Positions 29,436 to 48,635 of a stretch of DNA of 51,457 nt are shown here, one piece after another. The position numbers were made by a program, and so were the translations under genes. The notes beneath the pieces were generated by a model. The model was not told where the DNA came from and made no database searches. It saw only the letters and a program-made list of their open reading frames with translations. Position 1 is the first letter of the stretch; the number at the start of each line of letters is the position of its first letter. The stretch comes from Rhodoferax sp. (GTDB lineage: Bacteria; Pseudomonadota; Gammaproteobacteria; Burkholderiales; Burkholderiaceae_C): NCBI GenBank assembly GCA_031417575.1, contig JANOVW010000050.1, positions 1-51,457 on the forward strand, in the 5' to 3' direction.

Positions 29436-29453
29436 GCTAGCCGCCGCCACAGC

Positions 29454-30032: not shown

Positions 30033-30118
30033 AAACGGTTACTCCAAAATAAATGCGGGAAACACGTTGGCGAACCTTTTGTGTGCCGAAACACACAAAG
30101 AGTTCGACGGGCCAAAAA

Positions 30119-30604
<486 letters not shown>

Positions 30605-30779
30605 TCAGCGAGCCGACTGGTTGCAGCTTACGCATCGCGTCACCGCGTCTCTGTGCGGTGCACCACTTAGCGCAAATAAATTGTTGCGGCCCAAATTTTT
30701 CTCCTTATGTAGGGCAACGCACAGAGCAGCCCTTGGATTCCGCGCACCATTCAACTCTTTAACCACCGAGGAGTTGGAC

Positions 30780-31250: not shown

Positions 31251-31495
31251 AGCCTGTCCGCCTTGGCCTCTACAGCAGTGGCAGGCCGACAGACAGCCGA
31301 CGCCATTGCCCACTGTGCGGCGCGACCCTGGTGCGTACACCGCGGCGCTTGATCGACCGCTTGTTCAGCCGGTTCATGCCGATGCTGCGCTACCGGTGCG
31401 AGCGATTCTTGTGCCAATGGCAGGGCAATATGCGCCTGGGCCCGATGGAAGAGGCCTCAGACACCATCACATCCCTGCCCTCGCGCGGGTCTTGA
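31247..31495 (+). CDS. small Cys-rich (zinc-ribbon-like) protein
   Basis: ATGA-coupled to the upstream gene. Has a CPLCG..RYRC..C.W.G four-Cys pattern. Confidence 0.5.
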   Translation: MKPVRLGLYSSGRPTDSRRHCPLCGATLVRTPRRLIDRLFSRFMPMLRYRCERFLCQWQGNMRLGPMEEASDTITSLPSRGS

Positions 31496-31512
31496 GCGTC
31501 GGCCCCGCCCAC

Positions 31513-31543
31513 AAAAAAAGGGCCGACTGCGTCGGCCCTTTTT
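31513..31543. terminator. bidirectional intrinsic terminator
   Basis: The sequence aaaaaaa-gggccgac-tgc-gtcggccc-ttttt lies between convergent genes. Confidence 0.85.
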
Positions 31544-31572
31544 AATTGAAGGGCAACCCATGCCCCAAAAAT

Positions 31573-32136
31573 TCAGGTCTTGCCAAACCGGCTTTTGGCG
31601 TTGGTGATGCAATCGGCTTTGGCGGCACCGGCCAACATTTCGCATTGCTCAGCTGCTACCTTGTAATCCGCATCGAGCTTCTTTTGTTTGCCTTCAGCGG
31701 TGGTGCTGTTGATCGCGCCCGTGCTGCGCACATCCACCAGCGCTTTGACCATCACCGCTTTGGCTTCTTTGCGGCAAACCGACTTGTCGTTACCGGCCAT
31801 GTCGTCACAGCGTTCTTTGGCTACTTCATACGTGGTGTTGGCCTTGGCTTCGCCCACCTTGGTCAGGTCTTTTGGTTTTTCGCTAAAGCTGTATTGCAGC
31901 TCGGCCCGCGCCACCGTGGCTTTGCCTTTGGCTTCCTCTTTGCAGATATCACGGGCATTGCCAGCCAATACCTTGCAAGCAGCTTGGTCTGCCTTATAGG
32001 TGGTGGCAACACGTTCCTTGCCCATTTTGAGTTCGTCCTTGCTGATCGCGGCCGCATACACGGGCGCAAAAAACAGGGGCAATGTCAGCGCGGCAGCAGC
32101 GATGCTGGATACGCGAAAAGTGAATTTGGAGGTCAT
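31573..32136 (-). CDS. periplasmic protein with three Cys-pair repeats (unknown function)
   Basis: Signal peptide, then three copies of Y.(V/A)A...C..(L/M)AG..(K/R)..C...AK. Confidence 0.7.
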   Translation of the reverse strand: MTSKFTFRVSSIAAAALTLPLFFAPVYAAAISKDELKMGKERVATTYKADQAACKVLAGNARDICKEEAKGKATVARAELQYSFSEKPKDLTKVGEAKANTTYEVAKERCDDMAGNDKSVCRKEAKAVMVKALVDVRSTGAINSTTAEGKQKKLDADYKVAAEQCEMLAGAAKADCITNAKSRFGKT

Positions 32137-32180
32137 ATAAGTCCTTGGTTTGGTTGAAAAAGCGGAAAGAGGAAAAGAAA

Positions 32181-33002
32181 TCAGGCGCGGGGTTCGCCCT
32201 GGCGATTTACGGTGATGGTGGAGCCGGGTGGCGTTGTCATTTGCAGCCGGTGCTCCACGCCCCGAAAGCTGTAACTCACGTCATACAACTCAGGCCGCGC
32301 CTGGCTGGGCACTTCCCGGCAGCGCTGAACACTTTGGGTGGCCATGGGCTGGGAATATCCATCCCGGCCAACCTGGGCACCAATGGCGCCCCCGGCAATC
32401 GCACCACCCACAGTGGCCAGGTCATTGTTACGGCCACTCCCGACTTGGTGCCCCAGAATGCCGCCAATCAGCGCGCCCACTACTGCACCCGGAACATTGG
32501 AGTTGTATGGTGATGGTGATGGCGCCGAAACCTGCTCGCGTTCCACCCAGCAGCGTTGTTCCGGCGGGCCAACCACGGCACGCACCGAGGTGACGTCGGC
32601 TTCAAAAAGGCGTTCATTGCGGCGGCGGCGGTTGTCATACACCGGGGCTGCTGGCGGTGCATATCGGTCGCTGTCAACCCTGGCGTTGCCATTCACCGCC
32701 CGCATGGATGAAACCCGGTCATTCAGGCCCATGGCCGCCAATGAAGGGTAGCGCCCTGGGCGCAACACCACACACTGGCCATGGAAATCCGCGTGCTCGC
32801 ATACTTCCCAGCGGTTCTGCAAAACAATCATGGAAGAAGAGCGGTCGTTAAAGCCGTAACTGCCCAGGTTTCGGACGTTCTGACCGCTGTTGAAGGAACG
32901 GCCCTGAAAATTCGGCTCTTCATAAAAGGTAACCTGGGCGCTAGCCTGGCCCGCCAGGGCGATGGCGGCACAGGCCAGGGCACCGCGCAGAAGTGTTTTC
33001 AT
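32181..33002 (-). CDS. beta/gamma-crystallin domain + glycine-zipper (Rick_17kDa-like) outer-envelope protein
   Basis: Signal peptide at ATG 33002. Two Greek-key motifs (FYEEPNFQGRS..; VCEHADFHGQC..RVSS). C-terminal GAVVGALIGGILGHQVGSG..GGAIAGGAIGAQVG. Confidence 0.8.
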   Translation of the reverse strand: MKTLLRGALACAAIALAGQASAQVTFYEEPNFQGRSFNSGQNVRNLGSYGFNDRSSSMIVLQNRWEVCEHADFHGQCVVLRPGRYPSLAAMGLNDRVSSMRAVNGNARVDSDRYAPPAAPVYDNRRRRNERLFEADVTSVRAVVGPPEQRCWVEREQVSAPSPSPYNSNVPGAVVGALIGGILGHQVGSGRNNDLATVGGAIAGGAIGAQVGRDGYSQPMATQSVQRCREVPSQARPELYDVSYSFRGVEHRLQMTTPPGSTITVNRQGEPRA

Positions 33003-33036: not shown

Positions 33037-33042
33037 AGTATC
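33037..33042 (-). promoter_or_regulatory. -10-like box GATACT (crystallin/glycine-zipper operon)
   Basis: Lies exactly 45 nt from operator site 1. It is followed after 10 nt by ATCAAC, as at two other island promoters. Confidence 0.4.
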
Positions 33043-33087
33043 AGGATTACCCGTCGCCACGACCAGCAGACAAGCGCCTGATGGGCC

Positions 33088-33103
33088 GTAGTAGCTGTCC
33101 TAC
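33088..33103. promoter_or_regulatory. 7-2-7 operator site 1 (GTAGTAG-CT-GTCCTAC)
   Basis: Member of the GTCCTAC heptad family. The variant is identical to site 5 (GTAGTAG-NT-GTCCTACACA). Confidence 0.5.
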
Positions 33104-33118
33104 ACACGGATGGCTCAC

Positions 33119-33140
33119 CGCGTAGGACGTGTCCTACGCG
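33119..33140. promoter_or_regulatory. 7-2-7 operator site 2, perfect 10-2-10 palindrome CGCGTAGGAC-GT-GTCCTACGCG
   Basis: Perfect inverted repeat. Lies 45 nt upstream of CATACT (33183-33188) and ~106 nt upstream of the orphan receiver ATG. Confidence 0.55.
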
Positions 33141-33182
33141 CACGCGGGTAAGAAACCGATTTCGCGCGGCAGCGTTCATGGG

Positions 33183-33188
33183 CATACT
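33183..33188 (+). promoter_or_regulatory. -10-like box CATACT (orphan receiver gene)
   Basis: Lies exactly 45 nt downstream of the heptad pair of site 2. Confidence 0.4.
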
Positions 33189-33245
33189 GTCTGCATGCAT
33201 TCCGTGCCACGTTTTCTGCTGGGCGGCCCCCTCAACACCTATCCC

Positions 33246-33650
33246 ATGCTCAAGACTTACCTCGTTGAAGACAGCCCGGTGATCCGCGAAAGCCTGATCA
33301 TCACCTTGGAAGAGCTCAGCGAAGTCAAGGTAATCGGTACGGCCGAAGACGAACACAACGCTGTGGCGTGGCTGTCAGACCCGGGTAATGTGGTGGATCT
33401 GGTGATCATCGACATTTTTCTCAAGGGCGGTTCCGGGCTGGGTGTGCTCAGAAGCATCCACCAGTTGGCCCTTCGGTACCATTTGGTTGTGCTCACCAAC
33501 TACGCTACTGAAGATATGCGCCAACGATGCCTTGCGTTAGGTGCCAGCCGGGTATTTGACAAATCGAATGACATCGACGCCTTGATTGCCTACTGTGACA
33601 AACTGTCAGGCGACAACCCTGACACCACAAGGCCAGGTTGGCTTCAATGA
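33246..33650 (+). CDS. single-domain (CheY-like) response-regulator receiver
   Basis: Has the VEDS acidic pocket, the IIDIFL phospho-Asp, and LTNY and FDKS motifs. No output domain. Confidence 0.85.
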   Translation: MLKTYLVEDSPVIRESLIITLEELSEVKVIGTAEDEHNAVAWLSDPGNVVDLVIIDIFLKGGSGLGVLRSIHQLALRYHLVVLTNYATEDMRQRCLALGASRVFDKSNDIDALIAYCDKLSGDNPDTTRPGWLQ

Positions 33651-33689
33651 ACGCAGCTTCCGGCGTTCGATCGTTGAATCAGGCTGGCG

Positions 33690-34325
33690 TTACTGAATCA
33701 GCCCGTTCTTCATGGCGTAATACGTCAAATCGCTGTTGGATTCGAGTTTTGTCTTCTCCAGCACACGGGTGCGGTACGTACTGACAGTTTTGACACTGAG
33801 TGACATGCTCACCGCCATATGCCCAATCGTTTCACCTTTCGCCAGCCGCAAGAACACCTGGAATTCCCGCTCCGAGAGCAGTTCGTGGGGCAGTTTGTCA
33901 GCGCCGCCGCTGACCATCGTGTCGGCTATTTGCTCAGCCACCCCAGCAGTGATGTATTTGCGGCCCCGGTGCACGGTGCGTATGGCGGCCACGATTTCCT
34001 GGGGGTCGCAGTCTTTGTTCAGGTAGCCGCTGGCTCCCTGGCGCAGCAAGGTGGTGGCGTAATGCGCTTCGGGGAAACCGCTCAAGATCAGCACCGGCAA
34101 ATCAGGTGCCCGCGCCTTGATGGCGGCCAGCGCGTCAACACCACTTTGGTCGGGCATCGAGATGTCCATCACGATCACGTCCACGTCGCCTTTGCGCACA
34201 ATATCGACCGCCTGGCGGCCCGTAGTGGCCTCTGCCACCACCTGAAAATCAATCTGGTCGGAAAAAAATTGCCGCAGGCCCGCACGCACCATGGCGTGGT
34301 CGTCAACGATGGCAATGCGGATCAT
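33690..34325 (-). CDS. NarL/FixJ-family response regulator (receiver + LuxR/GerE HTH)
   Basis: IAIVDDH.., VIVMDISMPD, and a C-terminal LSEREFQVFLRLAKGETIGHMAVSMSLSVKTVSTYR HTH. Confidence 0.92.
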   Translation of the reverse strand: MIRIAIVDDHAMVRAGLRQFFSDQIDFQVVAEATTGRQAVDIVRKGDVDVIVMDISMPDQSGVDALAAIKARAPDLPVLILSGFPEAHYATTLLRQGASGYLNKDCDPQEIVAAIRTVHRGRKYITAGVAEQIADTMVSGGADKLPHELLSEREFQVFLRLAKGETIGHMAVSMSLSVKTVSTYRTRVLEKTKLESNSDLTYYAMKNGLIQ

Positions 34326-34381
34326 GAAACAAAGCGGTTAGTCATGCCGAATGATTACACACTTCTTGGGCAGGCCTGAAA

Positions 34382-35728
34382 ATGGATTTGGTCAACACCC
34401 TCAAAACCAACCGCGTTGTGGTGCCAATGGCATTTTTGGCGGCACTGTTGATGTTGCTGTTGAGTGAAACCGCGTATTGGCGGGCGCAAAACGCCTTGAA
34501 CAGCTTGGTGACCGTGCAGAATGACCGAAGTAGCATTCTGCAACTGACGGAAAGCGTTCTCAAGGTCGAGTCGGGGCAGCTCGGCTATATCCTCACGGGC
34601 GATTTGCGCTTGCTTGAAAACCAGAACGAAAACAAAGCCGCCATTGCCGAAATTTTTCCGAAATTGGCGACCACTTTTGCCGATAACCCTGAGTTGCTGG
34701 CGGCACTGAACAAAATGCGATTGACGGTTGGCAACCGGCAAGCAACCCTGGCGGAAGGTATACGGCTCAAAAGCGAGCGTGGTTCACAGGCGTCGACAGA
34801 TGCCATCCTGCAAACCATTCAATCCATGCCCTTAGCCCAGTCACTGGACGACGAATTGATGGCGCTGGAACTACCTGGGCGCGTGCAGCGACGCGAAGCA
34901 GTCTACAGCGCGCTGGTGCTGAATCGTTTGGGCGTGGCGTTGCTCACAACCATCAGCCTTATGGCCCTGCTGCTCTACCTGCGGCAAACCCATGTGCTCG
35001 GACTGCAGCAAAAGGAGCTCAAGCAGATCGAACAACAAGTGCGGGTCGACCTGGAAGCCGAAGTTGCCCTGCGAACAGCTGAGCTCACCGACTTATCACG
35101 ATATCTGCTGAATGCCCGCGAAGACGAGCGCAACCGCCTGGCCCGCAACCTGCACGATGATCTGGGCGCTTTGTTGACCTCCGCCAAACTGGACGCGGCC
35201 CGTATCAAGGCGCGGCTGACCAAGACAGCACCCGATGAGCTCGAGTTGCTGAGCCACCTGGTGGCCTCGCTCAACGCCTGCGTTGCAATGGGGCGCAACA
35301 TTATTGAAAACCTGCGCCCTTCTGCGCTGAGTAACCTGGGCCTGGTGTCAACACTGGAAATACTGACCCGCGAGTTTACGGAAAACACCGGCGTTCCGGT
35401 GCAATGCCAACTCAGCCCGGTGGCATTGAGCCCCAACGCCGAACTCATGCTTTACCGCGTGGTGCAAGAGGCACTGACCAACATTTCCAAATACGCCAAC
35501 GCCACGCAGGTCTGGGTTAGCCTGGGTAGCCAAAATGGCCAGGTCAGCCTGGCAGTCCGCGACAACGGGCAAGGTTTCAATACCATAACCAAGGTTGGCA
35601 CAGCCTATGGCTTGCTGGGCATGCGCTTTCGGGTGGAGGCCGAAGGGGGCCACCTGACGGTAGTTTCCCACCCCGGCAGCGGTACACAAATTCTGGCCAC
35701 GCTGAAGGTAAGCACAGCCCAGCCCTGA
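34382..35728 (+). CDS. CHASE3-domain sensor histidine kinase (HisKA_3 type)
   Basis: TM helix, CHASE3-like periplasmic domain, second TM helix, H-box ARNLHDDLGALL, and an HATPase domain. Divergent from the NarL-type regulator. Confidence 0.88.
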   Translation: MDLVNTLKTNRVVVPMAFLAALLMLLLSETAYWRAQNALNSLVTVQNDRSSILQLTESVLKVESGQLGYILTGDLRLLENQNENKAAIAEIFPKLATTFADNPELLAALNKMRLTVGNRQATLAEGIRLKSERGSQASTDAILQTIQSMPLAQSLDDELMALELPGRVQRREAVYSALVLNRLGVALLTTISLMALLLYLRQTHVLGLQQKELKQIEQQVRVDLEAEVALRTAELTDLSRYLLNAREDERNRLARNLHDDLGALLTSAKLDAARIKARLTKTAPDELELLSHLVASLNACVAMGRNIIENLRPSALSNLGLVSTLEILTREFTENTGVPVQCQLSPVALSPNAELMLYRVVQEALTNISKYANATQVWVSLGSQNGQVSLAVRDNGQGFNTITKVGTAYGLLGMRFRVEAEGGHLTVVSHPGSGTQILATLKVSTAQP

Positions 35729-35775
35729 ATCAAGCCTTCACCTGGCTAGAAGTAGCTGGTCGTGGCGCCTGGCCT

Positions 35776-35791
35776 GTCGGCCAAGTCCTAC
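35776..35791. promoter_or_regulatory. 7-2-7 operator site 3 (GTCGGCC-AA-GTCCTAC)
   Basis: The right heptad is exact and the left arm matches 5/7. Lies upstream of the DUF883 operon, with GATACTGGG at 35860. Confidence 0.4.
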
Positions 35792-35859
35792 AGCTGCGCG
35801 TCGGCTTCACCCACACATTTGCAGCCATCACACTGATGGATGCGCATCGCAGTCCCGCA

Positions 35860-35865
35860 GATACT
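35860..35865 (+). promoter_or_regulatory. -10-like box GATACT (DUF883 operon)
   Basis: GATACTGGG-N..-ATCAA uses the same phasing as the two glycine-zipper promoters. Confidence 0.35.
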
Positions 35866-35957
35866 GGGTTCACCCCATCAAAGCGGTCTCTGTACTCAAG
35901 CTTTCAGCCAGACTGCAATTCAATGGCCAAACCCGTCTTTATCCTGAAGGAAATCAT

Positions 35958-36338
35958 ATGTCTACCACCCCCATCGCACAAACCATCGACAGCCTCGCCG
36001 ACAAGGCAACCGGCTCGGCTGACAACGCCATGTTTGCGACCCAGCACGCGGCCAATGGAGCCTTGAACATGCTGGCCGACAAGGTATTGGAAATTCGCAA
36101 TCAAGCGGAGCCAATGCTGGCAAACGCCAATGGTCAAGCCAAAGATTATTTGCATCAGGGCATTGATTCCGTCCGCCATGCATCCCAACAACTCGCTGGG
36201 GCCGCTTTACATGCACGCGACGGCGCAACCAGCTATGTGAAGGAAGAGCCGCTCAAGGCCATACTGATCGCAGCGGCAACAGGTGCCGCCCTGATGGCAT
36301 TGGTCAGCCTGATCAGCCAGTCGCACCGCAAGGCTTAA
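35958..36338 (+). CDS. DUF883 (ElaB/YqjD/YgaM-family) membrane-anchored stress protein
   Basis: Ala/Gln-rich helical body, then EEPLKAILIAAATGAALMALV as a C-terminal anchor. GAAGGA RBS. Confidence 0.88.
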   Translation: MSTTPIAQTIDSLADKATGSADNAMFATQHAANGALNMLADKVLEIRNQAEPMLANANGQAKDYLHQGIDSVRHASQQLAGAALHARDGATSYVKEEPLKAILIAAATGAALMALVSLISQSHRKA

Positions 36339-36344
36339 CCCCCA

Positions 36345-36776
36345 GTGCCACTGGTTCTGCCATTTTTAACCCTTTTGCCACCTCCAATGCCATCCCAACA
36401 ATCACCGGCTTTGGTTGCCATGCTTCAACTACTGGCAAGTCACCCAGGCCTGTTGGTGGATCACGCGCAGGCTTATGCAGGGCTTCTCGCCAGCGAAGCG
36501 CAAATGGCCGCCCAACGCTGCAAGCGCCAGACCATTTTGCTGGTGGTGGCGATTGCCAGCTTCTGCGTAGCCGCGGTGTTGCTTGGTGTTGCCTGGATGT
36601 TATTTGCCTTGGGCACACCACTCTGGGCCTTGTTGTCCGCACCACTGCCCGCCTTGCTGGTGGGTGGTGGTTGCCTGCTCATGGCAAGCCGGCCGATGCC
36701 CGCGCCACCTTTTTCCGAGATTAAACGCCAGTGGGCAGACGACCTGGCCATGTTGCAGGAAACAATGACACCATGA
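36345..36776 (+). CDS. YqjE-like / holin-X family membrane protein
   Basis: Two TM helices and a position after DUF883, as in E. coli yqjD-yqjE-yqjK. The start is GTG 36345 or ATG 36387. Confidence 0.7.
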   Translation: MPLVLPFLTLLPPPMPSQQSPALVAMLQLLASHPGLLVDHAQAYAGLLASEAQMAAQRCKRQTILLVVAIASFCVAAVLLGVAWMLFALGTPLWALLSAPLPALLVGGGCLLMASRPMPAPPFSEIKRQWADDLAMLQETMTP

Positions 36777-37255
36777 CCGACCCGAGCACTGCCGCCAGTC
36801 TGGCCAACGAACGTCTGGCCCGTTCGCGCGACAGCCTGCGTCAGGCGATCCGCGCCGACAGGGTGCCGGCAACTCCCGATGTGGGCACGCCAAACTGGTT
36901 CAAGGGGTTCGATGGCCTGAAGGCCCTGCCGGGTTTTGATGCCCTGCTGACAGCACTGCGCATTGGGTGGCTGCAGCCGCTGCGACAGGCGGGCGTGACG
37001 TTGTCCGATGTGGCAACACCATTGCTCAAGCCGTTGGCGCAACGTTACCCCCTGGCTTTGGCCTTGGGTGGCGTCGCCATCGGTGCGATATTGGTGAAAC
37101 TCAAACCCTGGCGCTGGCTACCAGCTGCAGCCATCGTATCGAGCCTGGCACCTCAAGCCCTAGGCAAAATAGTGAGCGCTCTCCCCGTGCAATCGTGGTT
37201 GGTCTCGGCGGTGCGCTCCATCAGGGTCAAGAACCAGAACAAACCGCGGGTCTGA
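36773..37255 (+). CDS. YqjK-like protein
   Basis: ATGA-coupled to the previous gene. Has the ERLARSRDSLRQAI motif and a C-terminal hydrophobic segment. Confidence 0.65.
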   Translation: MTDPSTAASLANERLARSRDSLRQAIRADRVPATPDVGTPNWFKGFDGLKALPGFDALLTALRIGWLQPLRQAGVTLSDVATPLLKPLAQRYPLALALGGVAIGAILVKLKPWRWLPAAAIVSSLAPQALGKIVSALPVQSWLVSAVRSIRVKNQNKPRV

Positions 37256-37264
37256 GACCCGCCC

Positions 37265-38236
37265 TCACTTCACCTCCAAAAAAGCACAGCCCGAGCCCTT
37301 GCGTTTGGCTTGGTACATGGCCCGATCAGCCTGTTTGAGCAACACTGCACCGGTGTGGCCATCATCAGGCCACACCGCGATGCCAATGCTGGGGCGAACC
37401 ACCAAAGCCAGTTCACCGACAGGCAGGTCTGCTACTGCCTCAAAAATTTTGCGGGCTTGCTGGTAGACCTGGTCGCGGCCCGGAAACCCCGTCAGGAAGC
37501 AGCCAAATTCATCACCCCCCAAGCGACCCACCATATCGTTGGTTCGAACCGCTTGTTTAATCCGTCCGGCAACGATTTTTAGCACTTCATCGCCCTTGTC
37601 ATGACCATAGGTGTCGTTGATTTTCTTGAAACCGTCCAGATCCAGAAAAAACACAGCGAGTGCCGGGCGCGTTGGCGCCGGTTGTTCCTGCTGCTGCGCC
37701 TGTTCCATTGCCTGATCCAGGCATTGGCAAAAATGGTTGCGGTTGGGCAACGTCGTCAACCCATCATGGCGCGCCAAGTGGTGCGAACGCCGCTCCTGCG
37801 CACGGGTGCCCTGCAACTCAATGTGTTTGCGCGCCAAAGCAGCCTGCGCCAGTGACACTTCCTGTTTGAGATGTTGGCGCTTGGCCAATTCCTTGGAAAG
37901 TGATAGGTGCAGTTGATCCAGCGCGGCCACACAGTCCACCATGCCGGCCTGGATTTGATGAATACTTTGCTGGCGCATGGGCTCTGGCAAATCAGCCAGC
38001 GCATCGCCCGCCGTTGACAGCAGTCGGGCCTTGATGGCGTTCAGCAACAGGTCCCAGTCAGTCACGGGGATGTCTCCAGCCACACCCGATAAAGGCTGAA
38101 GGCGCAGGCGGGCACCACCGTTGCCATCGTACATGACAGCTTCTGCTCTTGGCTTGATGCCGTGGCTTGCGCCATTGGGCAAGGCCTGCAGGCCTGGGCC
38201 GGACTGCATGCTCTTCAGCATCTTGATGCTGCCCAA
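37265..38236 (-). CDS. GGDEF diguanylate cyclase with coiled-coil N-terminal domain
   Basis: GGDEFG active site and an RxxD-like region. The start is uncertain (TTG 38236, ATG 38221 or ATG 38209). The longest-ORF start lies 1 nt after the DUF3309 stop codon. Confidence 0.88.
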   Translation of the reverse strand: MGSIKMLKSMQSGPGLQALPNGASHGIKPRAEAVMYDGNGGARLRLQPLSGVAGDIPVTDWDLLLNAIKARLLSTAGDALADLPEPMRQQSIHQIQAGMVDCVAALDQLHLSLSKELAKRQHLKQEVSLAQAALARKHIELQGTRAQERRSHHLARHDGLTTLPNRNHFCQCLDQAMEQAQQQEQPAPTRPALAVFFLDLDGFKKINDTYGHDKGDEVLKIVAGRIKQAVRTNDMVGRLGGDEFGCFLTGFPGRDQVYQQARKIFEAVADLPVGELALVVRPSIGIAVWPDDGHTGAVLLKQADRAMYQAKRKGSGCAFLEVK

Positions 38237-38237
38237 C

Positions 38238-38396
38238 CTAGATACGACCCATCACCACCAAGATGATGAGGATGATCACCACCAAGCCCACACCTCCAGA
38301 GGGACCGTACCCCCATTTGCTGCTATGCGGCCAGGTGGGCAAAACGCCGATCAGCAACAGGATCAGGACAATTAAAAACAGGGTTCCGAGGCTCAT
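38238..38396 (-). CDS. DUF3309 small membrane protein
   Basis: MSLGTLFLIVLILLLIGVLPTWPHS..YGPSGGVGLVVIILIILVV. AAGGAG RBS. Confidence 0.8.
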   Translation of the reverse strand: MSLGTLFLIVLILLLIGVLPTWPHSSKWGYGPSGGVGLVVIILIILVVMGRI

Positions 38397-38652
38397 GATG
38401 TTCTCCTTGGTTGGATCAAAACGTGAACTGAAGCCCGCCGTTTTGGCGACATGACTCACTCCACACGATGATCGTAAACAAGCCCCAGCACGCATTCTGT
38501 TCGATACCGAACACAATAAAAAAAAGAGAGAAAAGCGGTTTGACAGTGATTGTTTGGAACCACAATCATCAACGGCAACCTGTGTGCGCCAACGCACAGC
38601 CCACCCACGCCTGCGCACAGCAAAATGAGCCCCCCTGATTTGGAGAAACACG

Positions 38653-39786
38653 ATGGAAGCCGCCCCTGAAAGCCCCGTACCACCGCCCGCTGCTTTGGCC
38701 GATCAGCCCCTTGAGCACCTGGTGAAAGGCACGCCACAGTTCACGCGCAACAAGGCACTTTTCTGGCTGCTGGTGGCCGCGTCGTTGAGCCTGGCCTGGA
38801 TACTGTTGCCGTTCTACGCACCGATCATGTGGGCGTTTACCTTTGCGCTGATGTTTGCGCCTTTGAATCAATGGTTGCTCAAACGCATGAAGGGCGAAGC
38901 CAATGCTGCAGCTGTGCTGACCCTGCTGATCGTGATCGCGGTGGTGATCTTCCCGCTGGTACTGGTGGTATTGGCAATAGCTGGCGACATTGCTGAATTG
39001 AATCGCCGATTGATGACTGGCGAATTGAACCCCCTGCGGTATTTGCACGCCTTGTTCGACAACCTGCCACAGTGGACGCGTTTACTGCTGGAACGCCTGG
39101 GCCTGAAAGATTTCGACAGTGTGGAGCGCCGTGGCACGGCTGCCATGGCCCAGGCTAGTCAGTACGTTGGAGGGCAAGCCCTGAGCATCGGCTTGGACGC
39201 ATTTGATGTGGTGATCGGAATGTTCATTGCGCTCTATCTGGCCTTTTTCATGCTGCGTGACGGTGAACAGCTGGCGCGAACCTTGCACGACGCGTTTCCG
39301 CTGGCACCTGGTTACAAATACCAACTACGCAACAAATTTGCCACGGTGGTTCGGGCCACCATCAAGGGCAACTTCCTGATCGCCGGTATCCAGGGCGCAC
39401 TGGGGGGATTGGCGTTCTGGTTTCTGGGTATTCAGGGTGCGCTTTCGTGGGCGGTGTTGATGGCATTGTTATCGTTGCTGCCCGCTATTGGAGCCGGTTT
39501 GGTATGGGTGCCGGTCGCCTTGTATTTTTTTATCACGGGTGCGATATGGCAGAGCGTGGCGCTGACGGCCTTCGGCGTGCTGGTGATAGGCCTGGTCGAC
39601 AACATTTTGCGGCCCGCCTTGGTGGGCCGAGACACCCGTCTGCCTGACTACCTGGTGATGATCAGCACATTGGGTGGCATGGCTGTTTTCGGCATCAATG
39701 GTTTTGTGTTGGGGCCGGTGATCGCAGCACTGTTCATAGCCGTGTGGCATATCCATGGCACCACCCGCACCGACACCACGCCTTGA
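38653..39786 (+). CDS. AI-2E family transporter (PerM/YhhT-like permease)
   Basis: Eight predicted TM helices, with LLPAIGAGLVWVP and DNILRP motifs. Confidence 0.88.
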   Translation: MEAAPESPVPPPAALADQPLEHLVKGTPQFTRNKALFWLLVAASLSLAWILLPFYAPIMWAFTFALMFAPLNQWLLKRMKGEANAAAVLTLLIVIAVVIFPLVLVVLAIAGDIAELNRRLMTGELNPLRYLHALFDNLPQWTRLLLERLGLKDFDSVERRGTAAMAQASQYVGGQALSIGLDAFDVVIGMFIALYLAFFMLRDGEQLARTLHDAFPLAPGYKYQLRNKFATVVRATIKGNFLIAGIQGALGGLAFWFLGIQGALSWAVLMALLSLLPAIGAGLVWVPVALYFFITGAIWQSVALTAFGVLVIGLVDNILRPALVGRDTRLPDYLVMISTLGGMAVFGINGFVLGPVIAALFIAVWHIHGTTRTDTTP

Positions 39787-39811
39787 GCCCAACAGCCGGC
39801 CCTACACGGCT

Positions 39812-40504
39812 TCAAGCCACCATTGCGCCCGATTGGCCACTGCGCTGTTGGAGCATCTGGCGATCGAGCACATCTATCTGGCCCCGGCTGTAGCGGATGG
39901 CGCCAGCCCGTTGCAGCTTTAATGCTGCTGCAGTCACGCCTTCACGCCGCACCCCCAGCAGATCAGCCAGCAGTTCTTGTGTCATGGTCAGGGCGGCAGA
40001 CTCCAAACGCTCCAGGCCCATCAGCAAACGGCGGCACATCAACTGATCGATCGACTGGTAGCGGTTGCACGCAGCAGTTTGTGCCACCTGCGCCATTAAG
40101 GCCTGGGCATACACCAACACGATGCCCGGGACTGGGCCTTGGCGGTTCATGGCATCTTTGACACACTGCACACGCAAGCGGTAAGCCTGCCCGGCGCTTT
40201 GTACCACGGCATCACTCGGGGTGGAGTTGCCCCCCATGAAGACGGAGACACCCACCACCCCATCTTTACCGACGACTGCAATTTCGGAAGAATCGCCGTC
40301 TTGCGTGCGGTACAACAACGAGACGATCGCTGTGGTCGGGAAGTAGACATAAGCTGGTGTGCGTCCTGATTCGCTCAAGACCTGGCCCAGCCGCAGATTG
40401 ACCGGTTCGAGTTCTGGTAACCATTGCTGCCATTCGACATCTGGCAAACTGGCCAGCAGCAAGTTATGGCGTGGATCGGAGCACGGGTCGGTGTTTGTAT
40501 TCAT
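39812..40504 (-). CDS. Crp/Fnr-family transcriptional regulator (no Fe-S Cys cluster)
   Basis: cNMP-binding fold plus a C-terminal HTH (QELLADLLGVRREGVTAAALKLQ). Confidence 0.88.
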   Translation of the reverse strand: MNTNTDPCSDPRHNLLLASLPDVEWQQWLPELEPVNLRLGQVLSESGRTPAYVYFPTTAIVSLLYRTQDGDSSEIAVVGKDGVVGVSVFMGGNSTPSDAVVQSAGQAYRLRVQCVKDAMNRQGPVPGIVLVYAQALMAQVAQTAACNRYQSIDQLMCRRLLMGLERLESAALTMTQELLADLLGVRREGVTAAALKLQRAGAIRYSRGQIDVLDRQMLQQRSGQSGAMVA

Positions 40505-40729
40505 GAAACTCTCGCATGGCTGAATGAGTCCTCATGATCCGGGCGCGTTGAATTTGGCGCCATCAGCCGCAGCCGTTTTAAGTTGTCAGTGCGTTCCTAC
40601 GCTGTTGAGCCGGGCTGCCGGCAAACGACAGTATTCTTTTTTGACGCCACCGCAACACTCACATGCGCAGCAGGTGGGCGTCATCTCGCGAACCGCTTGC
40701 ATAGCGTTTGCAAGCGCTTTGTGCGGCAT

Positions 40730-40745
40730 CGCGGCGTTGTCCTAC
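40730..40745. promoter_or_regulatory. operator site 4 (exact right heptad TGTCCTACATC, weak left arm)
   Basis: Lies 111 nt upstream of the BON gene ATG. A near-heptad GTTCCTAC lies at 40593-40600. Confidence 0.35.
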
Positions 40746-40855
40746 ATCGAGCCGTAACGCCAACTGATAACGCAGGGCAGACTTGCCTCATAAAGTCAAT
40801 CCAGATTCGACGCAACCCGCATCCAGCACCATCGAAGCGTCACAGGAGAACCATC

Positions 40856-41197
40856 ATGCGCATTTACACCACGTGGGGAACCATTGCCGCCGCAATTGCC
40901 ACTACGCTTGTCGTCGCTATTGCCTTGATGGCCTTGACCGCCTGCGTGGTTAGTCCTTCCCGCGAAGCGCAAAGCATTCTGATGGACGATGCCGGCATCA
41001 CGCAGCAGGTCAAATCCCGTTTTGTGGACAGCCCGCAAGTCGATGGTCGCGCTATCCACGTTGAAACATTGCACGGAACCGTTTTACTGACCGGTGTTGC
41101 CAGCACCCCACTCGATAAGGCCGTCGCCAGTGAAATTGCGCTGGGTGTTGCCGGTGTACGGTTGGTGCAAAACGAAATCACGATACGTCAACGATGA
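40856..41197 (+). CDS. BON-domain lipoprotein
   Basis: ..LTAC lipobox and a single BON domain. AGGAGA RBS. Confidence 0.88.
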   Translation: MRIYTTWGTIAAAIATTLVVAIALMALTACVVSPSREAQSILMDDAGITQQVKSRFVDSPQVDGRAIHVETLHGTVLLTGVASTPLDKAVASEIALGVAGVRLVQNEITIRQR

Positions 41198-41260
41198 GCC
41201 CGTGATGGTCCGGTGCAAACCGGGCTGGCATTTTTCAATCTTCAATCAAAGGAACTTCAT

Positions 41261-41488
41261 ATGAACTGGGATCAAATTCAAGGCAACTGGAAACAATCGG
41301 TTGGCAAAGTCAAAGAACAGTGGGGACAACTGACGGATGACGACCTGGATGTCGTGGCTGGCCGCCGCGACCAATTGGCCGGCAAGATCCAGGAGCGTTA
41401 TGGCATTGCCAAAGACGACGCAGAAAAGCAGTTGGCCGAGTGGCAACGCAAAGCCTCTGACACCTGGTTTCCAAAAACCAAAAACTGA
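41261..41488 (+). CDS. CsbD-family stress protein
   Basis: MNWDQIQGNWKQ..GKVKEQWGQLTDDDLD..GRRDQLAGKIQERYG. Confidence 0.92.
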   Translation: MNWDQIQGNWKQSVGKVKEQWGQLTDDDLDVVAGRRDQLAGKIQERYGIAKDDAEKQLAEWQRKASDTWFPKTKN

Positions 41489-41517
41489 CCCCACCAGACT
41501 GGATTGGGGGCCTCGGC

Positions 41518-42240
41518 ATGAACTGCTCCACGCTTTTACCTGCACCGAGCGCCTGTTTGGGTTGCCGCTTGCGCGAAATGTGTCTGCCAGCGGGCATGAC
41601 CGACGCGCAGGTGGAGCAGTTCAGCCAAGGCGTGACCAGCAAGCGCCGCATCAAGGTGGGGCAGGCCCTCTACCAACAAGGTGACACATTTCACACGATT
41701 TACGCTATTCGCAGTGGTACGCTGAAATCCAGCCTGATGCTGGCGGATAGCCGTGAACAGGTTAGCGGTTTCCACATCGCGGGCGAACAGGTCGGTCTGG
41801 ACGGCATAGCCCACGCCAGGCATGCCACCACAGCCATCGCGCTGGAAGACACCGAAGTTTGCGCCATCACCTATGCCGGCCTCGTGCCACTATTGCTTTC
41901 CATGGGTCGCGAACACGTACTGAGCCGACTGATGAGCCATGAAATTGTGCGGGATCAGCGTCTTTTGTTGATGTTGGGCAGCATGAACGCGGCGCAGCGG
42001 CTGGCAGGTTTTTTGATCAACCTGGCAGGTCGGCTCAAAGGCTTGGGGTATGCCTCCGGCGAATTTCATTTGCGCATGACACGAGCCGACATTGGCAGCC
42101 TGTTATGCATGAAGATTGAAACCGTTAGCCGGATGTTTTCCGCCTTTCAAAAACAACGTTTGCTGAAGGTTGACAAGCGGCATATCCAGATATTGGATGC
42201 GCAAGGCCTGGCCAGCGCCTTTGCGGCACCCCGAACCTGA
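41518..42240 (+). CDS. fnr: FNR/Anr-type oxygen-sensing Crp/Fnr regulator
   Basis: The N-terminal C13-x2-C16-x5-C22 spacing, plus a central Cys (EDTEVC), matches the FNR [4Fe-4S] ligand spacing. C-terminal HTH (RADIGSLLCMKIETVSRMFSAF). Confidence 0.85.
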   Translation: MNCSTLLPAPSACLGCRLREMCLPAGMTDAQVEQFSQGVTSKRRIKVGQALYQQGDTFHTIYAIRSGTLKSSLMLADSREQVSGFHIAGEQVGLDGIAHARHATTAIALEDTEVCAITYAGLVPLLLSMGREHVLSRLMSHEIVRDQRLLLMLGSMNAAQRLAGFLINLAGRLKGLGYASGEFHLRMTRADIGSLLCMKIETVSRMFSAFQKQRLLKVDKRHIQILDAQGLASAFAAPRT

Positions 42241-42252
42241 ACGGCGGTCCGC

Positions 42253-43236
42253 GTGAAGTTCAAGGATTACTACGCTGCCCTGGGCGTGGCCCGCGATGCT
42301 GATCTGGAGCAGATCAAAAAGGCCTACCGAAAACTGGCACGCCAACATCACCCGGACATGTCCAAAGCGGCTGGTGCAGAGGCCCGTTTCAAAGACGTGG
42401 CTGAAGCGTATGCCACCTTAAAGGACCCGGAAAAACGCGCTGCTTATGATGGCTTGGGCAGCCACCCGGAAGGCCAGGAATTTGAGCCACCCCACGCAGA
42501 CCGCTCGCGTGGGTTTGACAGCAACAACTTTGACGACATGGATCTGGCTGACTTATTGGCGTCGCTAGGCCGTGGCCACCGCCAGTCTGGCCGAGCCCCT
42601 GGCCCCATGCCGGGGCCAGATTTTGAAACCGGCTTGCAGGTCACACTGGAAGATGCCCACCGGGGTACGACCGTTCACCTGACTCTGCAAACCAGCGACG
42701 GCGAACGTACCCTGGAAGTCACGGTGCCAGCGGGCGTAACAGAAGGCCAAAAACTCAGGCTGCGCGGCAAAGGCGGCAAAGGCCATGCGGGTGGTGCCGA
42801 TGGCGACATCTACTTGCACATCACCCTGCAACCGCATGCCGTGTTCCGCACCGACCACCATGATCTGTATTTTGATTTGGCGTTGACCCCTTGGGAGGCT
42901 GCACTCGGCACAGACGTGCAAGTGGCCACGTTAGACCAACCCGTTATGCTGACTGTTCCCCCGTTGACGCCCTCTGGCCGCAAGTTGCGCCTGCGCGGGC
43001 GTGGCCTGCCCAACCCCCGTGCAGGTGCAGTGGGCGTACCGGGTGCGGCGGCTTCACCGGATTCAAAAAGGCATGGCGATTTGTACGCAGTTGTTCGAAT
43101 CGACATGCCAACCAGCCTGAACGCCGCACAACGCAAGCTTTTTGAAGAGATTGCTTCCTCATCGACCTTCAACCCCAGGGCGAACCCCGCAGCCCCGCAA
43201 CCCAAAGAGAAATCCCATGACACCCCAACTGACTGA
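42253..43236 (+). CDS. cbpA: curved-DNA-binding protein CbpA (DnaJ homologue)
   Basis: J domain (KDYYAALGV..HHPD) plus DnaJ C-terminal domains, with no zinc finger. GTG start. Confidence 0.9.
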   Translation: MKFKDYYAALGVARDADLEQIKKAYRKLARQHHPDMSKAAGAEARFKDVAEAYATLKDPEKRAAYDGLGSHPEGQEFEPPHADRSRGFDSNNFDDMDLADLLASLGRGHRQSGRAPGPMPGPDFETGLQVTLEDAHRGTTVHLTLQTSDGERTLEVTVPAGVTEGQKLRLRGKGGKGHAGGADGDIYLHITLQPHAVFRTDHHDLYFDLALTPWEAALGTDVQVATLDQPVMLTVPPLTPSGRKLRLRGRGLPNPRAGAVGVPGAAASPDSKRHGDLYAVVRIDMPTSLNAAQRKLFEEIASSSTFNPRANPAAPQPKEKSHDTPTD

Positions 43237-43606
43237 TTGGATTTGGCTGGACATGCGGCAAACCGTGTCGCTGGCGGAGTTGTCGCAGGCCTGCGGCTTG
43301 TCTTCGGAGGAACTGGGGGAACTGATGGACTACGGCGCACTGGCACCCTCACAACCGCTGCAACCACAACGTCGCTCACCCGATGAGGTGGCATCGCAGT
43401 TGCCGCATCAATTCCGTGCTGACTGGATCACGCGGCTACGCACTGCCGCCGGTTTGCGCCTGCACTATGACCTGGATCTGTTCAGCATGGGCATGATGCT
43501 GGGATACCTCACGCGCATTGAAGACCTGGAGCGACAACTGGCCTCGCTGCTGGCGCAGTCACCCAGGGCGGCGCGACCCAGTCCCGGCCAAGGATATGAA
43601 AACTGA
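43217..43606 (+). CDS. cbpM: chaperone modulatory protein CbpM (MerR-like)
   Basis: Overlaps the cbpA 3' end by 20 nt. Has the ..VSLAELSQACGLSSEELGELMDYG motif. Confidence 0.82.
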   Translation: MTPQLTDWIWLDMRQTVSLAELSQACGLSSEELGELMDYGALAPSQPLQPQRRSPDEVASQLPHQFRADWITRLRTAAGLRLHYDLDLFSMGMMLGYLTRIEDLERQLASLLAQSPRAARPSPGQGYEN

Positions 43607-43613
43607 ACTGAAA

Positions 43614-43631
43614 ATGGCCCGAACGGGCCAT
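43614..43631 (-). terminator. intrinsic terminator of the OsmB-like gene
   Basis: On the minus strand: atggccc-gttc-gggccat followed by ttttcagttcagtttt. Confidence 0.6.
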
Positions 43632-43692
43632 GGCAGAACCGCTGCTGCGACAGCGTAGTCGCCAAGCTTTCGCCTGACGGAGCTGCCACAGT

Positions 43693-43911
43693 CTATCGCT
43701 GACGGTTCACTTCGCTGCCGATCACACCACCGACTGCGGCGCCTGCTCCGGTGCACAAGATGCCACCACACAGCAGGTTGCCGGCTACGCCGCCGATCAC
43801 GGCGCCGGTGGCAATGCCTTGTTCCTGACGGGTCATGCCTGAGCAGCCCGACAGCAACACAAGTGCCACGGCTGCGATGGCCAGACTGGATTGGGTATAG
43901 ATTGATTTCAT
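43693..43911 (-). CDS. OsmB-like glycine-zipper lipoprotein
   Basis: LLSGCS lipobox, then GAVIGGVAGN..GAGAAVGGVIGSEV. Confidence 0.85.
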   Translation of the reverse strand: MKSIYTQSSLAIAAVALVLLSGCSGMTRQEQGIATGAVIGGVAGNLLCGGILCTGAGAAVGGVIGSEVNRQR

Positions 43912-43950
43912 GATGAAGGCTCCTGTTGAAAAAGTTGATGAGGAGCCTTC

Positions 43951-43956
43951 AGTATG
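43951..43956 (-). promoter_or_regulatory. -10-like box CATACT (OsmB-like gene)
   Basis: Lies exactly 45 nt from operator site 5. The TGTCTGCT and ATCAAC blocks sit at the same offsets as upstream of the crystallin gene. Confidence 0.4.
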
Positions 43957-44001
43957 GCCAGCCCTCAAGGCGCCGGGTAGCAGACATCGCCGCTGACTGC
44001 G

Positions 44002-44017
44002 GTAGTAGATGTCCTAC
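44002..44017. promoter_or_regulatory. 7-2-7 operator site 5 (GTAGTAG-AT-GTCCTAC)
   Basis: Same variant and same 45-nt phasing as site 1. Confidence 0.5.
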
Positions 44018-44083
44018 ACAAAGGGTGTTGTTGGTTCAGTCAAATCGCAGGGCCTTGCCAATCGGCTCTCTGGTTGCAACACC

Positions 44084-44099
44084 GTAAGCCATGTCCTAC
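44084..44099. promoter_or_regulatory. 7-2-7 operator site 6 (GTAAGCC-AT-GTCCTAC)
   Basis: The right heptad is exact and the left arm matches 5/7. Lies 35 nt upstream of GATACA (44135-44140) and 120 nt upstream of the DUF1328 ATG. Confidence 0.45.
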
Positions 44100-44218
44100 G
44101 CCAATGCGTGTCGTTGGCTCACGGTGATCGGGCTGATACACCTATGGTTTGCCAACCCTGTTGCAGCCAAACTTGCTGCATGGCGGTGGCTTTTCACCGC
44201 CTTCAGCAGGAGTTCAAC

Positions 44219-44383
44219 ATGCTTCACTACACCGTTGTATTTTTTGTCATCGCCTTGATCGCCGCCCTTTTCGGGTTTGGTGGCATCGCCGCAGGCGCGG
44301 TCGAGATCGGCAAGATTCTTTTCACTGTTTTCGCGGTTCTGGCCGTCGTCAGTTTTCTGGTCGGCCTGGTTCGTAAAAACTGA
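44219..44383 (+). CDS. DUF1328 (UPF0391/YtjA-like) small membrane protein
   Basis: [27 protein letters not shown].. AGGAG RBS. Confidence 0.88.
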
Positions 44384-44492
44384 CCCTTATTTTCATGGTG
44401 TCAGCACTTGCATGAGCAGACACCTTGCACGGTTTTTTTGTTCCCCTTCCTCGTCCCCTTCCCTTTCACAACTATTTTCACCGGAGATATTC

Positions 44493-44807
44493 ATGACCTT
44501 TCGCAAACTTGCCATCATCACATTGTCTAGCTTGGCCCTGCTCACCGCCACCGGCTGCGCCGTTACACGCGGCCAGGAAACCGTGGGTGCGTATGTGGAC
44601 GACACCGTGATCACCTCAACTGTTAAATCGCGTTTTATTGAAGACACACAGGTCAGCGCGGCAGCCATCAGTGTGGAAACCCTCAACGGCACCGTGATGC
44701 TGTCGGGTTTTGCCAAGAGCAACCTGGAACGCAATGCCGCCGAAACGATCGCGCGGCGCGTGAATGGTGTGAAGCTGGTGAAGAACGAGATCGCCGTTCG
44801 ACCTTGA
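44493..44807 (+). CDS. BON-domain lipoprotein
   Basis: ..LTATGC lipobox and a single BON domain. GGAGA RBS. Confidence 0.88.
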   Translation: MTFRKLAIITLSSLALLTATGCAVTRGQETVGAYVDDTVITSTVKSRFIEDTQVSAAAISVETLNGTVMLSGFAKSNLERNAAETIARRVNGVKLVKNEIAVRP

Positions 44808-48496: not shown

Positions 48497-48575
48497 GCTG
48501 ACGTGCAAGTATGCGCTATTTGTGCAAAATTTCAAAATCAATCCCTTGCCCAGTGCTGGTTGCAAATACCGAATG

Positions 48576-48609: not shown

Positions 48610-48635
48610 GCCGTGCGAATTGGTATCGACGTGGA

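Follow-up and report, generated by a model that had tools for sequence, protein, structure and literature searches.

Which regulator controls the island of stress genes on contig JANOVW010000050.1 of Rhodoferax sp., and which DNA element does it recognize? The stretch analysed comprises 51,457 nucleotides (nt) and is referred to as the window. The element in question is a 16-base-pair (bp) inverted repeat of the layout 7-2-7, built around the heptamer GTCCTAC and located in the promoter regions of several stress genes of the island. This repeat is certainly a real, conserved cis-regulatory element. With a probability of roughly three in four, it is the operator of the NarL/FixJ-family response regulator encoded at 33690-34325, which would activate transcription from about -65 or -88. 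An initial annotation made from the sequence of the window had proposed a 7-2-7 operator of a local regulon with the NarL-family regulator of the island as binder, and the comparative tests described in the following support this core reading. The assignment to the regulator is based on genetic linkage, on a motif-first scan of metagenomes and on the match between recognition helix and half-site.

The heptamer GTCCTAC was found on the plus strand at 33097, 33131, 35785, 40739, 44011 and 44093, and its complement at 33122-33128; the six plus-strand positions are those given in the initial annotation. In dinucleotide-preserving shuffles, 1.5 copies were expected, the shuffle maximum was 6, and a count of 7 was reached in 0 of 100 shuffles. 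The 6 to 7 chance copies estimated before were too many, since equal base frequencies had been assumed and the guanine-plus-cytosine (GC) content of 57.6% had been ignored. The remaining details of that annotation were recovered: the left heptads read as listed (GTAGTAG, GTAGGAC, GTCGGCC, GTAGTAG and GTAAGCC), a T precedes the heptamer in five of the six copies, and one site is a perfect 10-2-10 palindrome, CGCGTAGGAC-GT-GTCCTACGCG. With up to three mismatches allowed, the 16-mer GTAGGACNNGTCCTAC showed 5 matches in the window compared to 0.56 expected. Altogether, the motif can be written as a 16-bp 7-2-7 inverted repeat GT(n)RGnn-NN-(G/T/C)TCCTAC-R, in which one half is strong and the other weaker. 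Rfam covariance models gave no match anywhere in the window.

Although about 90% of the window is coding, every heptamer copy is intergenic. The earlier claim that all copies are intergenic and none lies in a coding sequence holds once the true gene starts are used, which were obtained by reading the intergenic regions: the crystallin gene starts with an ATG at 33002 (minus strand), the receiver gene at 33246, the BON gene at 40856, csbD at 41262, the osmB-like gene at 43911 (minus strand) and the DUF1328 gene at 44219. The open reading frame (ORF) 44091-44258 overlaps one site and was rejected as a real gene. The predicted sites are as follows, with centres that assume a transcription start 7 nt past the -10-like hexamer described below:

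33088-33103: class A operator site GTAGTAGCTGTCCTAC (minus strand reads GTAGGACAGCTACTAC), serving the crystallin/glycine-zipper gene, centre at about -65.5
33119-33140: palindrome site with the core 16-mer GTAGGACGTGTCCTAC at 33122-33137, serving the receiver gene, centre at about -65.5
35776-35791: operator site GTCGGCCAAGTCCTAC, 48 nt past the stop codon of the kinase gene, serving DUF883-yqjE-yqjK, centre at about -88.5
40585-40600: weaker candidate site GTCAGTGCGTTCCTAC (TTCCTAC), absent from the initial annotation, serving the Crp/Fnr gene 39812-40504
40730-40745: operator site CGCGGCGTTGTCCTAC with a degenerate left half, serving the BON gene
44002-44017: class A operator site GTAGTAGATGTCCTAC, serving the osmB-like gene on the minus strand
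44084-44099: operator site GTAAGCCATGTCCTAC, serving the DUF1328-BON operon, centre at about -88.5

For an independent detection of these sites, position weight matrices (PWMs) were trained solely on related loci, with the window sites excluded from training. An independent PWM gave 8 window matches at a score of at least 14 compared to 0.18 in simulated sequence, and 7 at a score of at least 16 compared to 0.06. The top seven window matches of the first PWM were the listed sites, the palindrome being counted on both strands; it additionally picked 40585-40600, the weaker candidate, with a score of 10.3.

The related loci (cited by our own numbers, L001 and so on) were collected as follows. 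A search with the kinase yielded five loci in Rhodoferax-like metagenome-assembled genomes of Comamonadaceae/Burkholderiales, a search with the regulator yielded nine more, and an annotated replicon of Ideonella dechloratans was added. The regulator belongs to a large family with 7874 clusters at E <1e-40, and identity does not fall below 83% in the top 120 of them. Fourteen related loci with GC contents of 56-73% keep the module, composed of receiver, regulator and CHASE3 kinase, together with the sites. In most of the module loci the DUF883-yqjE-yqjK operon follows, with motif sites at both ends of the module. Accordingly, the orthologous promoters, which the initial annotation had suggested as a check, retain the motif, the spacing and the module in all 14 loci, and its designation of the motif as island-specific is true inside the window only, as the motif is conserved across many other genomes. 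The site directly downstream of the kinase gene is kept in L001, L004-L010, L012, L014 and L015, the degenerate BON site is conserved at L001 7355 and in L007, and the arrangement of the Crp/Fnr-type candidate site is repeated at L001 6536 and L007 1615. Of all predicted targets, the receiver gene is conserved most widely, with a site upstream in nearly all loci, and the palindrome or near-palindrome ahead of it recurs in Comamonadaceae loci as well as in distant metagenome loci.

All exact heptamers of Ideonella dechloratans lie within genes, while its real sites read CTCCTAC or ATCCTAC; the invariant core is therefore TCCTAC. The left half was evaluated with 32 sites that had been picked by TCCTAC and promoter geometry alone. 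It is conserved independently of the right half, with G1 in 27/32, T2 in 27/32, R4 in 31/32 and G5 in 24/32 sites. The independent retention of the left half and the occurrence of one perfect palindrome point to a 7-2-7 symmetry of the dimer type.

L007 (ena:ERZ25039503 contig_42459) contains three Crp/Fnr paralogues and, within 20 kb, 8 copies of GTCCTAC, with apparent sites upstream of Crp, PRC-barrel, 52-residue membrane-protein and crystallin genes, which suggests that this genome holds an expanded regulon. In L013 (ena:ERZ12298642 scaffold_540_c1), an 85%-identical regulator lies at 10001-10636 between the genes of glucose-6-phosphate dehydrogenase and an Asp/Glu racemase, and no kinase, receiver, stress genes or plausible sites were found within 10 kb of it. 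The regulator is hence not always linked to its targets.

The conserved sites stand at fixed distances from a second element. In 27 of 48 non-identical sites, the distance between the 16-mer and a hexamer NANNNT is exactly 45 nt, and in 17 it is exactly 68 nt, while every other offset gave 0-7. The hexamers seen were CATACT, GATACT, GACACT, CACACT, GAAACT, CAAACT, TAAAGT and GATCAT, with the consensus (C/G)A(T/C/A)ACT, and the spacing is the same whichever way the 16-mer faces. The strong heptad is promoter-distal at the lipoprotein, receiver and Crp genes and promoter-proximal at the BON, DUF883 and DUF1328 genes, so that the motif is not a directional promoter element. The properties of the 16-mer are thus those of an upstream activator site (class I type) with two-fold symmetry, set at a constant distance from a predicted core promoter. 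In class A, which includes the crystallin and osmB-like sites of the window, the layout 16-mer-N16-GTCYGCTG-N21-hexamer was found in 8/8 sites from 6 genomes, and the spacer sequence is not conserved. The spacing was held while the intervening sequence diverged, across 56-73% GC. TAAAGT, the hexamer of the BON promoter, likewise stands 45 nt from the sites at L004 8284 and L015 4924. The elements predicted for the window are:

33037-33042, minus strand: -10 hexamer GATACT of the crystallin promoter, 45 nt from the site, assigned by positional conservation
33183-33188, plus strand: -10 hexamer CATACT of the receiver promoter, 45 nt from the palindrome
35860-35865, plus strand: -10 hexamer GATACT of the DUF883 operon, 68 nt from the site
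40534-40539, minus strand: -10 hexamer GATCAT of the Crp/Fnr gene, exactly 45 nt from the candidate site
40791-40796, plus strand: -10 hexamer TAAAGT of the BON gene, 45 nt downstream of the site
43951-43956, minus strand: -10 hexamer CATACT of the osmB-like gene
44168-44173, plus strand: -10 hexamer CAAACT of the DUF1328 operon
35833-35840: conserved proximal element CTGATGGA of the DUF883 promoter
43978-43985, minus strand: proximal element GTCTGCTA of the osmB-like promoter
44141-44148: proximal element CCTATGGT of the DUF1328 promoter

No recognizable -35 element was found in the predicted promoters, and a scan for the sigma-70 consensus flagged none of them. This fits a dependence on an activator but gives it no positive support. 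The consensus of the -10-like hexamers ends in ACT, resembling RpoS-type TATACT boxes, and the hexamers almost never start with T. Two other promoter assignments were discarded. In the DUF883 and DUF1328 promoters, TATCGC and TATGGT, 43 nt downstream of the site, had been considered as the -10 element, and the offset histogram puts the conserved hexamer at 68 nt; with the hexamer at this distance, CCTATCGC becomes the element at -39 to -32. Reading the class A block CAGCRGAC...GTAGTWG as a sigma-54 or extracytoplasmic function (ECF) promoter was rejected because the spacings fit neither GG-N10-GC nor GGAAC-N16-17-GTC.

Between the strong site and the hexamer, weaker heptad-like elements appear to be arranged in phase. 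In the 68-nt class, the sequence is most similar to GTCCTAC at +23 and +46 bp, counted downstream from the strong heptad, with 4.2 and 3.6 matches out of 7 compared to a background of about 1.9, and the two promoter classes (45 and 68 nt) differ by 23 bp as well. The strongly conserved element at about -41 to -32 is GTCYGCTG in class A, where it occupies 33064-33071 and 43978-43985 and is preceded by GGCGC; its counterpart in the DUF883/DUF1328 class is CCTATCGC, CCTATGGT or CTGATGGA. These proximal elements share C-Y-K-n-T and end 21-22 nt ahead of the hexamer, too far upstream for a normal -35. In distant families the same place is occupied by CCGATA, which is not heptad-like. A phased array of dimers reaching down to the -35 region is likely, judging from the heptad similarity.

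The protein components of the module are encoded side by side, next to the palindrome:

33246-33650, plus strand: single-domain receiver with intact acidic pocket and D, T and K residues
33690-34325, minus strand: NarL/FixJ-family response regulator (receiver and GerE helix-turn-helix) with the recognition helix SVKTVSTYRTRVLEK, the proposed binder
34382-35728, plus strand: CHASE3-HisKA_3-HATPase sensor kinase, the proposed cognate kinase

Across the related loci, hardly any variation is seen in the recognition helix, SVKTVSTYRTRV(M/L)EK, although the kinases share only 47-70% identity. In order to approach the question from the side of the DNA, public metagenome contigs were scanned for the perfect palindrome GTAGGACNNGTCCTAC, which resulted in at least 120 loci. 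Of these at least 120 loci, 34 belong to an unrelated repeat resembling miniature inverted-repeat transposable elements (MITEs) on low-GC contigs, so that 86 remain among the matches listed. A NarL-type regulator with 42-72% identity is present in 14 of these 86 loci. All 14 carry the helix S(V/N/I)KTVST(Y/H)(R/K), and the regulator gene usually lies less than 300 bp from the palindrome. The commonest gene order among the matches listed was kinase-regulator-[site]-receiver-Crp/Fnr, and in three further, truncated contigs the site stands ahead of a receiver gene. From the few such genes per genome, the chance of such an adjacency of site and regulator can be roughly estimated to be well under 1%. 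The exact hexamer distance of 45 or 68 nt was found in 4 loci among the at least 120 palindrome loci, and in distant families the hexamer lies 65-68 or about 88 nt from the site. Since these distant metagenome families differ, the strict spacing is limited to the Burkholderiales group.

The excluded repeat occurs in L022, L024, L026, L029 and about 30 other loci, in which GTGTAGGAC-NN-GTCCTACAC is contained in about 110 nt on contigs with 38-47% GC. In L022, for example, positions 1820-1930 comprise several GTGTAGGAC units and CATAGGCGCCGGAACC ends. The repeat has the appearance of a mobile element of the MITE or repetitive extragenic palindromic (REP) type from an unrelated organism and not of a regulon site.

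A comparison with solved structures placed the regulator closest to VraR/LiaR (4e-31), followed by NarL (8e-23), DevR (2e-22), EvgA (7e-21) and RcsB (6e-14); it is not an orthologue of RcsB, EvgA, NarL or DevR. With regard to the DNA, the predicted operator is closest to the RcsB box, both in its sequence and in the arrangement of the half-sites: TA(G/A)GA-N4-TC(C/T)TA for RcsB compares to TAGGA-CNNG-TCCTA here (TAGGA-CGTG-TCCTA). RcsB reads its half-sites TTAGGAA/TCTAAGA through K180 and S184 (PMC5829831). Both proteins carry a GerE-type helix-turn-helix with Lys and Ser/Thr on the recognition helix, here as K-T-V-S-T. A further likeness to the Rcs system is given by the envelope and osmotic stress genes, an osmB-type lipoprotein included; osmB reportedly is an RcsB target. 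In contrast to Rcs, the kinase is of the CHASE3-HisKA_3 type and not RcsC/RcsD, and the regulator matches RcsB far less well than VraR. Furthermore, the flanks and the centre of the sites are GC-rich here, and the strong sites lie at about -65 and -88 instead of abutting the -35 element.

The heptad of BvgA is TTTCCTA, and EvgA is the E. coli homologue of BvgA. The likeness to BvgA-type sites proposed in the initial annotation stands as far as the TCCTA core and the EvgA-like helix are concerned, whereas the arrangement of the half-sites differs from that of EvgA. Among solved structures, the recognition helix is best matched by that of EvgA (SNKTVSTYKSRLMEK, KTVSTY), the two being nearly identical in KTVSTY(K/R)(S/T)R. 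The arrangement of EvgA sites was read directly from the emrK-evgA intergenic region of E. coli, which holds TTCTTAC-GCCT-GTAGGAT and therefore the same TCYTAC half-site; we take this stretch to be the EvgA box. Positions 2514-2540 of locus L016 (E. coli K-12, NC_000913.3) read TTCTTAC-GCCT-GTAGGAT-TA-GTAAGAA, i.e. an inverted pair and a third half-site as direct repeat, all of the TCYTAC type. While TAC points inward in TTCYTAC-N4-GTARGAA, it points outward in the everted GTAGGAC-N2-GTCCTAC of the window, and no conserved partner downstream of TCCTAC, as expected for the EvgA-type arrangement, was detected in the sites of the related loci. The sensor is unrelated to BvgS and EvgS, and the regulon consists of stress genes and not of virulence or acid resistance genes. 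Regarding the promoter layout, BvgA promoters comprise a strong distal inverted heptad and weaker dimers every 22 bp, the last of which abuts or overlaps a poor -35, and a promoter with a consensus -35 becomes constitutive (PMC7250471). The promoters described here resemble Pfha, Pfim3 and Pptx in that the strong site is furthest upstream and weaker, probably phased elements would lead to a poor -35, with the difference that the phasing is 23 bp instead of 22 bp.

NarL and NarP sites, TACYYMT-NN-AKRRGTA, are bound by NarL-family dimers and consist of inverted heptads 2 bp apart. The 7-2-7 format is common to both systems, whereas the heptad here is GTCCTAC and not TACYYMT, and the regulon is unrelated to nitrate respiration. 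The DosR/DevR site of mycobacterial dormancy is GGGAC-N4-GTCCC, with strong and weak tandem sites. This system likewise combines a NarL-family regulator and a HisKA_3 kinase with a GGAC/GTCC palindrome and stress or dormancy targets (DevR structure match 1.7e-22), and differs in spacer, recognition helix, phylum and signal. A site position near -65 has a precedent in the GAD box of a LuxR-family regulator, which is centred at -63 (PMC2887963). With respect to the gene content, the Caulobacter FixLJ-FixK-FixT system is comparable, in which the induced single-domain receiver FixT inhibits the kinase and provides negative feedback (PMC7078487). Both systems comprise a kinase, a NarL/FixJ-type regulator, Crp/Fnr regulators and a single-domain receiver. 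The sensor here is an extracytoplasmic CHASE3 and not a haem-PAS sensor, and, in contrast to FixT, the receiver keeps all phospho-acceptor residues and gives no hint of an iron-sulphur motif. Possible roles of this receiver are those of a phosphate sink or of an inhibitor of the kinase.

Taken together, these data can be combined into the following mechanism. The CHASE3 kinase would sense an extracytoplasmic stress, where osmotic, envelope or desiccation stress is a guess, and phosphorylate the regulator, the dimer of which would then occupy the strong inverted-heptad site 65.5 or 88.5 bp upstream of the start. Subsequently, it would probably fill the weaker heptad-like elements in 23-bp steps down to the -35 region and thereby activate promoters that have a (C/G)A(T/C/A)ACT hexamer and no recognizable -35. 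The receiver most likely would feed back on the kinase or drain phosphate. The predicted targets are the crystallin lipoprotein, the osmB-like gene, DUF883-yqjE-yqjK, the BON gene, DUF1328-BON, the receiver and probably one Crp/Fnr gene.

Several observations weigh against the assignment of the sites to this regulator and against parts of the mechanism. The scan of the organism's own genome covered the 51-kb window. Since the sites across the loci are largely orthologous, their counts overstate the independence, which amounts to about 8-10 independent promoter families. The -10 hexamers are predicted from positional conservation, and their first base is C or G and not the usual T. The agreement of the proximal elements with the heptad is partial, and they could be a sigma element or belong to a second factor, and a 23-bp step corresponds to a non-integral number of helical turns (BvgA: 22 bp). 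Moreover, the intergenic region of 56 bp between the divergent regulator and kinase genes (34326-34381) contains no operator, and direct autoregulation of these two genes seems to be absent here. In the distant metagenome loci L040, L027 and L050, the palindrome is located directly upstream of the regulator or kinase gene. Finally, the module has Crp/Fnr genes nearby not only in the window but also in L001, L007 and 6 of the metagenome loci found by the motif (among them L054, L077, L099, L116 and L135).

This last point leads to the alternative that one of the two Crp/Fnr proteins of the island (39812-40504 or 41518-42240) binds the repeat, which would then form a 5-6-5 palindrome, GTAGG-N6-CCTAC. 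A length of 16 bp and a centre near -65 would indeed fit class I activation of the Crp type. However, the sites are kept without a Crp/Fnr gene within 10 kb in L006, L008, L009, L012, L014 and L015, and seven metagenome loci on contigs of 6-13 kb contain site and regulator without a Crp/Fnr gene. The half-sites resemble neither TGTGA-N6-TCACA nor TTGAT-N4-ATCAA, one of the Crp/Fnr genes itself looks like a target, and heptads phased by 23 bp are a feature of the NarL/FixJ family, so that binding by Crp/Fnr is considered unlikely. It is also improbable that an unlinked GerE-family regulator with a similar helix is the binder and the neighbouring two-component system merely one of its co-regulated targets. 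The KTVSTY helix is common to a wider subfamily that includes EvgA, and the lone orthologue in L013 illustrates that regulator and targets can be unlinked; against this, site and regulator are adjacent in the 14 loci found by the motif and also in 14 loci found by the protein, and no other DNA-binding gene is consistently present.

A further alternative, an RpoS-type -10, would make GTCCTAC a core promoter element (-10 or -35) of a stress sigma factor, for instance a CTAYRCT box, to which CTACRC is loosely similar. The targets are homologues of the E. coli RpoS-regulon genes osmY, osmB, yjbJ, elaB/yqjD, yqjE, yqjK, ytjA and cbpAM, and one strand carries every copy of the window and of the first loci, a pattern that is explained by synteny. 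The orientation is independent of the gene, with the strong heptad facing away from it in the class A and receiver promoters, there is no conserved T at the -7 position, the upstream half is conserved as an inverted repeat, and a separate, much better -10-like hexamer stands 45 or 68 nt away. For these reasons the idea was rejected, and a core promoter element is regarded as highly improbable. A chance cluster or a dispersed REP/MITE-like repeat without regulatory role, as might be suspected from the 110-nt repeat that contains the palindrome, is effectively refuted by the comparative data and the shuffles: within this lineage, conservation extends to the 16-mer and the spacings but not to the flanks, and the position relative to the genes is kept from 56 to 73% GC. 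Binding by the NarL-type regulator thus remains the preferred explanation.

No published description of the regulon or the motif was found in the literature searched. The proposed regulon is new and well defined, whereas its mechanism is an ordinary one and not new. It gives a testable regulon for a very common, unnamed two-component system of abundant freshwater and soil Betaproteobacteria, and yields predictions for the exact operator sequence, for the geometry of the promoters and for a feedback loop. It would also assign a regulator to stress genes of unknown function, namely DUF883, YqjE/K, DUF1328, BON, CsbD and glycine-zipper lipoproteins. In addition, an RcsB-box arrangement, an EvgA-like helix and a BvgA-like promoter layout can coexist, which is useful for the prediction of specificity in the NarL/FixJ family. 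A more far-reaching and rather doubtful proposal is that, in Comamonadaceae, Sphaerotilaceae and lineages further away, the module is the master switch of the response to general, osmotic or desiccation stress. If true, it would govern a gene set that is run by RpoS or Rcs in enterobacteria, via dimers phased by 23 bp and a FixT-like feedback, and would represent a widespread, unnamed stress regulon built on a two-component system rather than a sigma factor.

The genes proposed as targets, together with those following the BON gene, are:

32181-33002, minus strand: beta/gamma-crystallin and glycine-zipper lipoprotein (Pfam), target
35958-37255, plus strand: operon of DUF883 (ElaB/YqjD-like), YqjE-like and YqjK-like genes, target
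39812-40504, minus strand: Crp/Fnr-family regulator, probable target
40856-41197, plus strand: BON-domain protein, target
41262-41488: csbD, past a terminator-like hairpin
41518-42240: second Crp/Fnr gene, past the hairpin
42253-43606: cbpA/cbpM, past the hairpin
43693-43911, minus strand: osmB-like glycine-zipper lipoprotein, target
44219-44807, plus strand: operon of DUF1328 (YtjA-like, 44219-44376) and a BON-domain protein, target

The gene identities given in the initial annotation were confirmed by Pfam, including the crystallin/glycine-zipper protein, the receiver, the NarL-type regulator, the CHASE3/HisKA_3 kinase, DUF883, the osmB-like lipoprotein, two Crp/Fnr and two BON proteins; further confirmed genes of the island are GGDEF, AI-2E, CsbD and CbpA/CbpM. 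Pfam assigned DUF1328 to the orthologues in L012 and L015. The Crp/Fnr gene 39812-40504 is likely an extra target through its TTCCTAC site. For the proposed BON-csbD-fnr-cbpAM operon, the BON gene was retained as a target on account of the site 40730-40745. The membership of csbD-fnr-cbpAM is uncertain because a terminator-like hairpin at 41206-41227 (9 bp, then GCATTTTTCA) splits these genes from the BON gene, so that two transcription units may be present. An inverted repeat GCTTGCA-N7-TGCAAGC at 40695-40715, 15 nt upstream of the operator at 40730 and partly kept in L001 (TTTGTATAGCGTTCGC), may be the site of another regulator, e.g. a Crp/Fnr protein.

In the PWM scan of the window, the double-BON gene 29454-30032, the GGDEF gene and the AI-2E gene were without a site above background. 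The region 27575-32157, left of the sites, contains stress- or envelope-type genes without an operator above background, comprising DUF4337, an endonuclease/exonuclease/phosphatase-family protein, a WXXGXW-repeat protein, the double-BON protein, which is OsmY-like (29454-30032, minus strand), and a collagen-triple-helix-repeat protein (30119-30589, minus strand). The island is therefore larger than the regulon. Housekeeping genes flank the island, namely gltA, rne, the hem operon, ppc, argH and thyA to its left and ntrBC-glnA to its right. On the right flank, an ORF of 627 residues (48447-50330, plus strand) runs antisense to glnA (48636-50054, minus strand); it has no Pfam match and is almost certainly a spurious shadow ORF of high-GC DNA.

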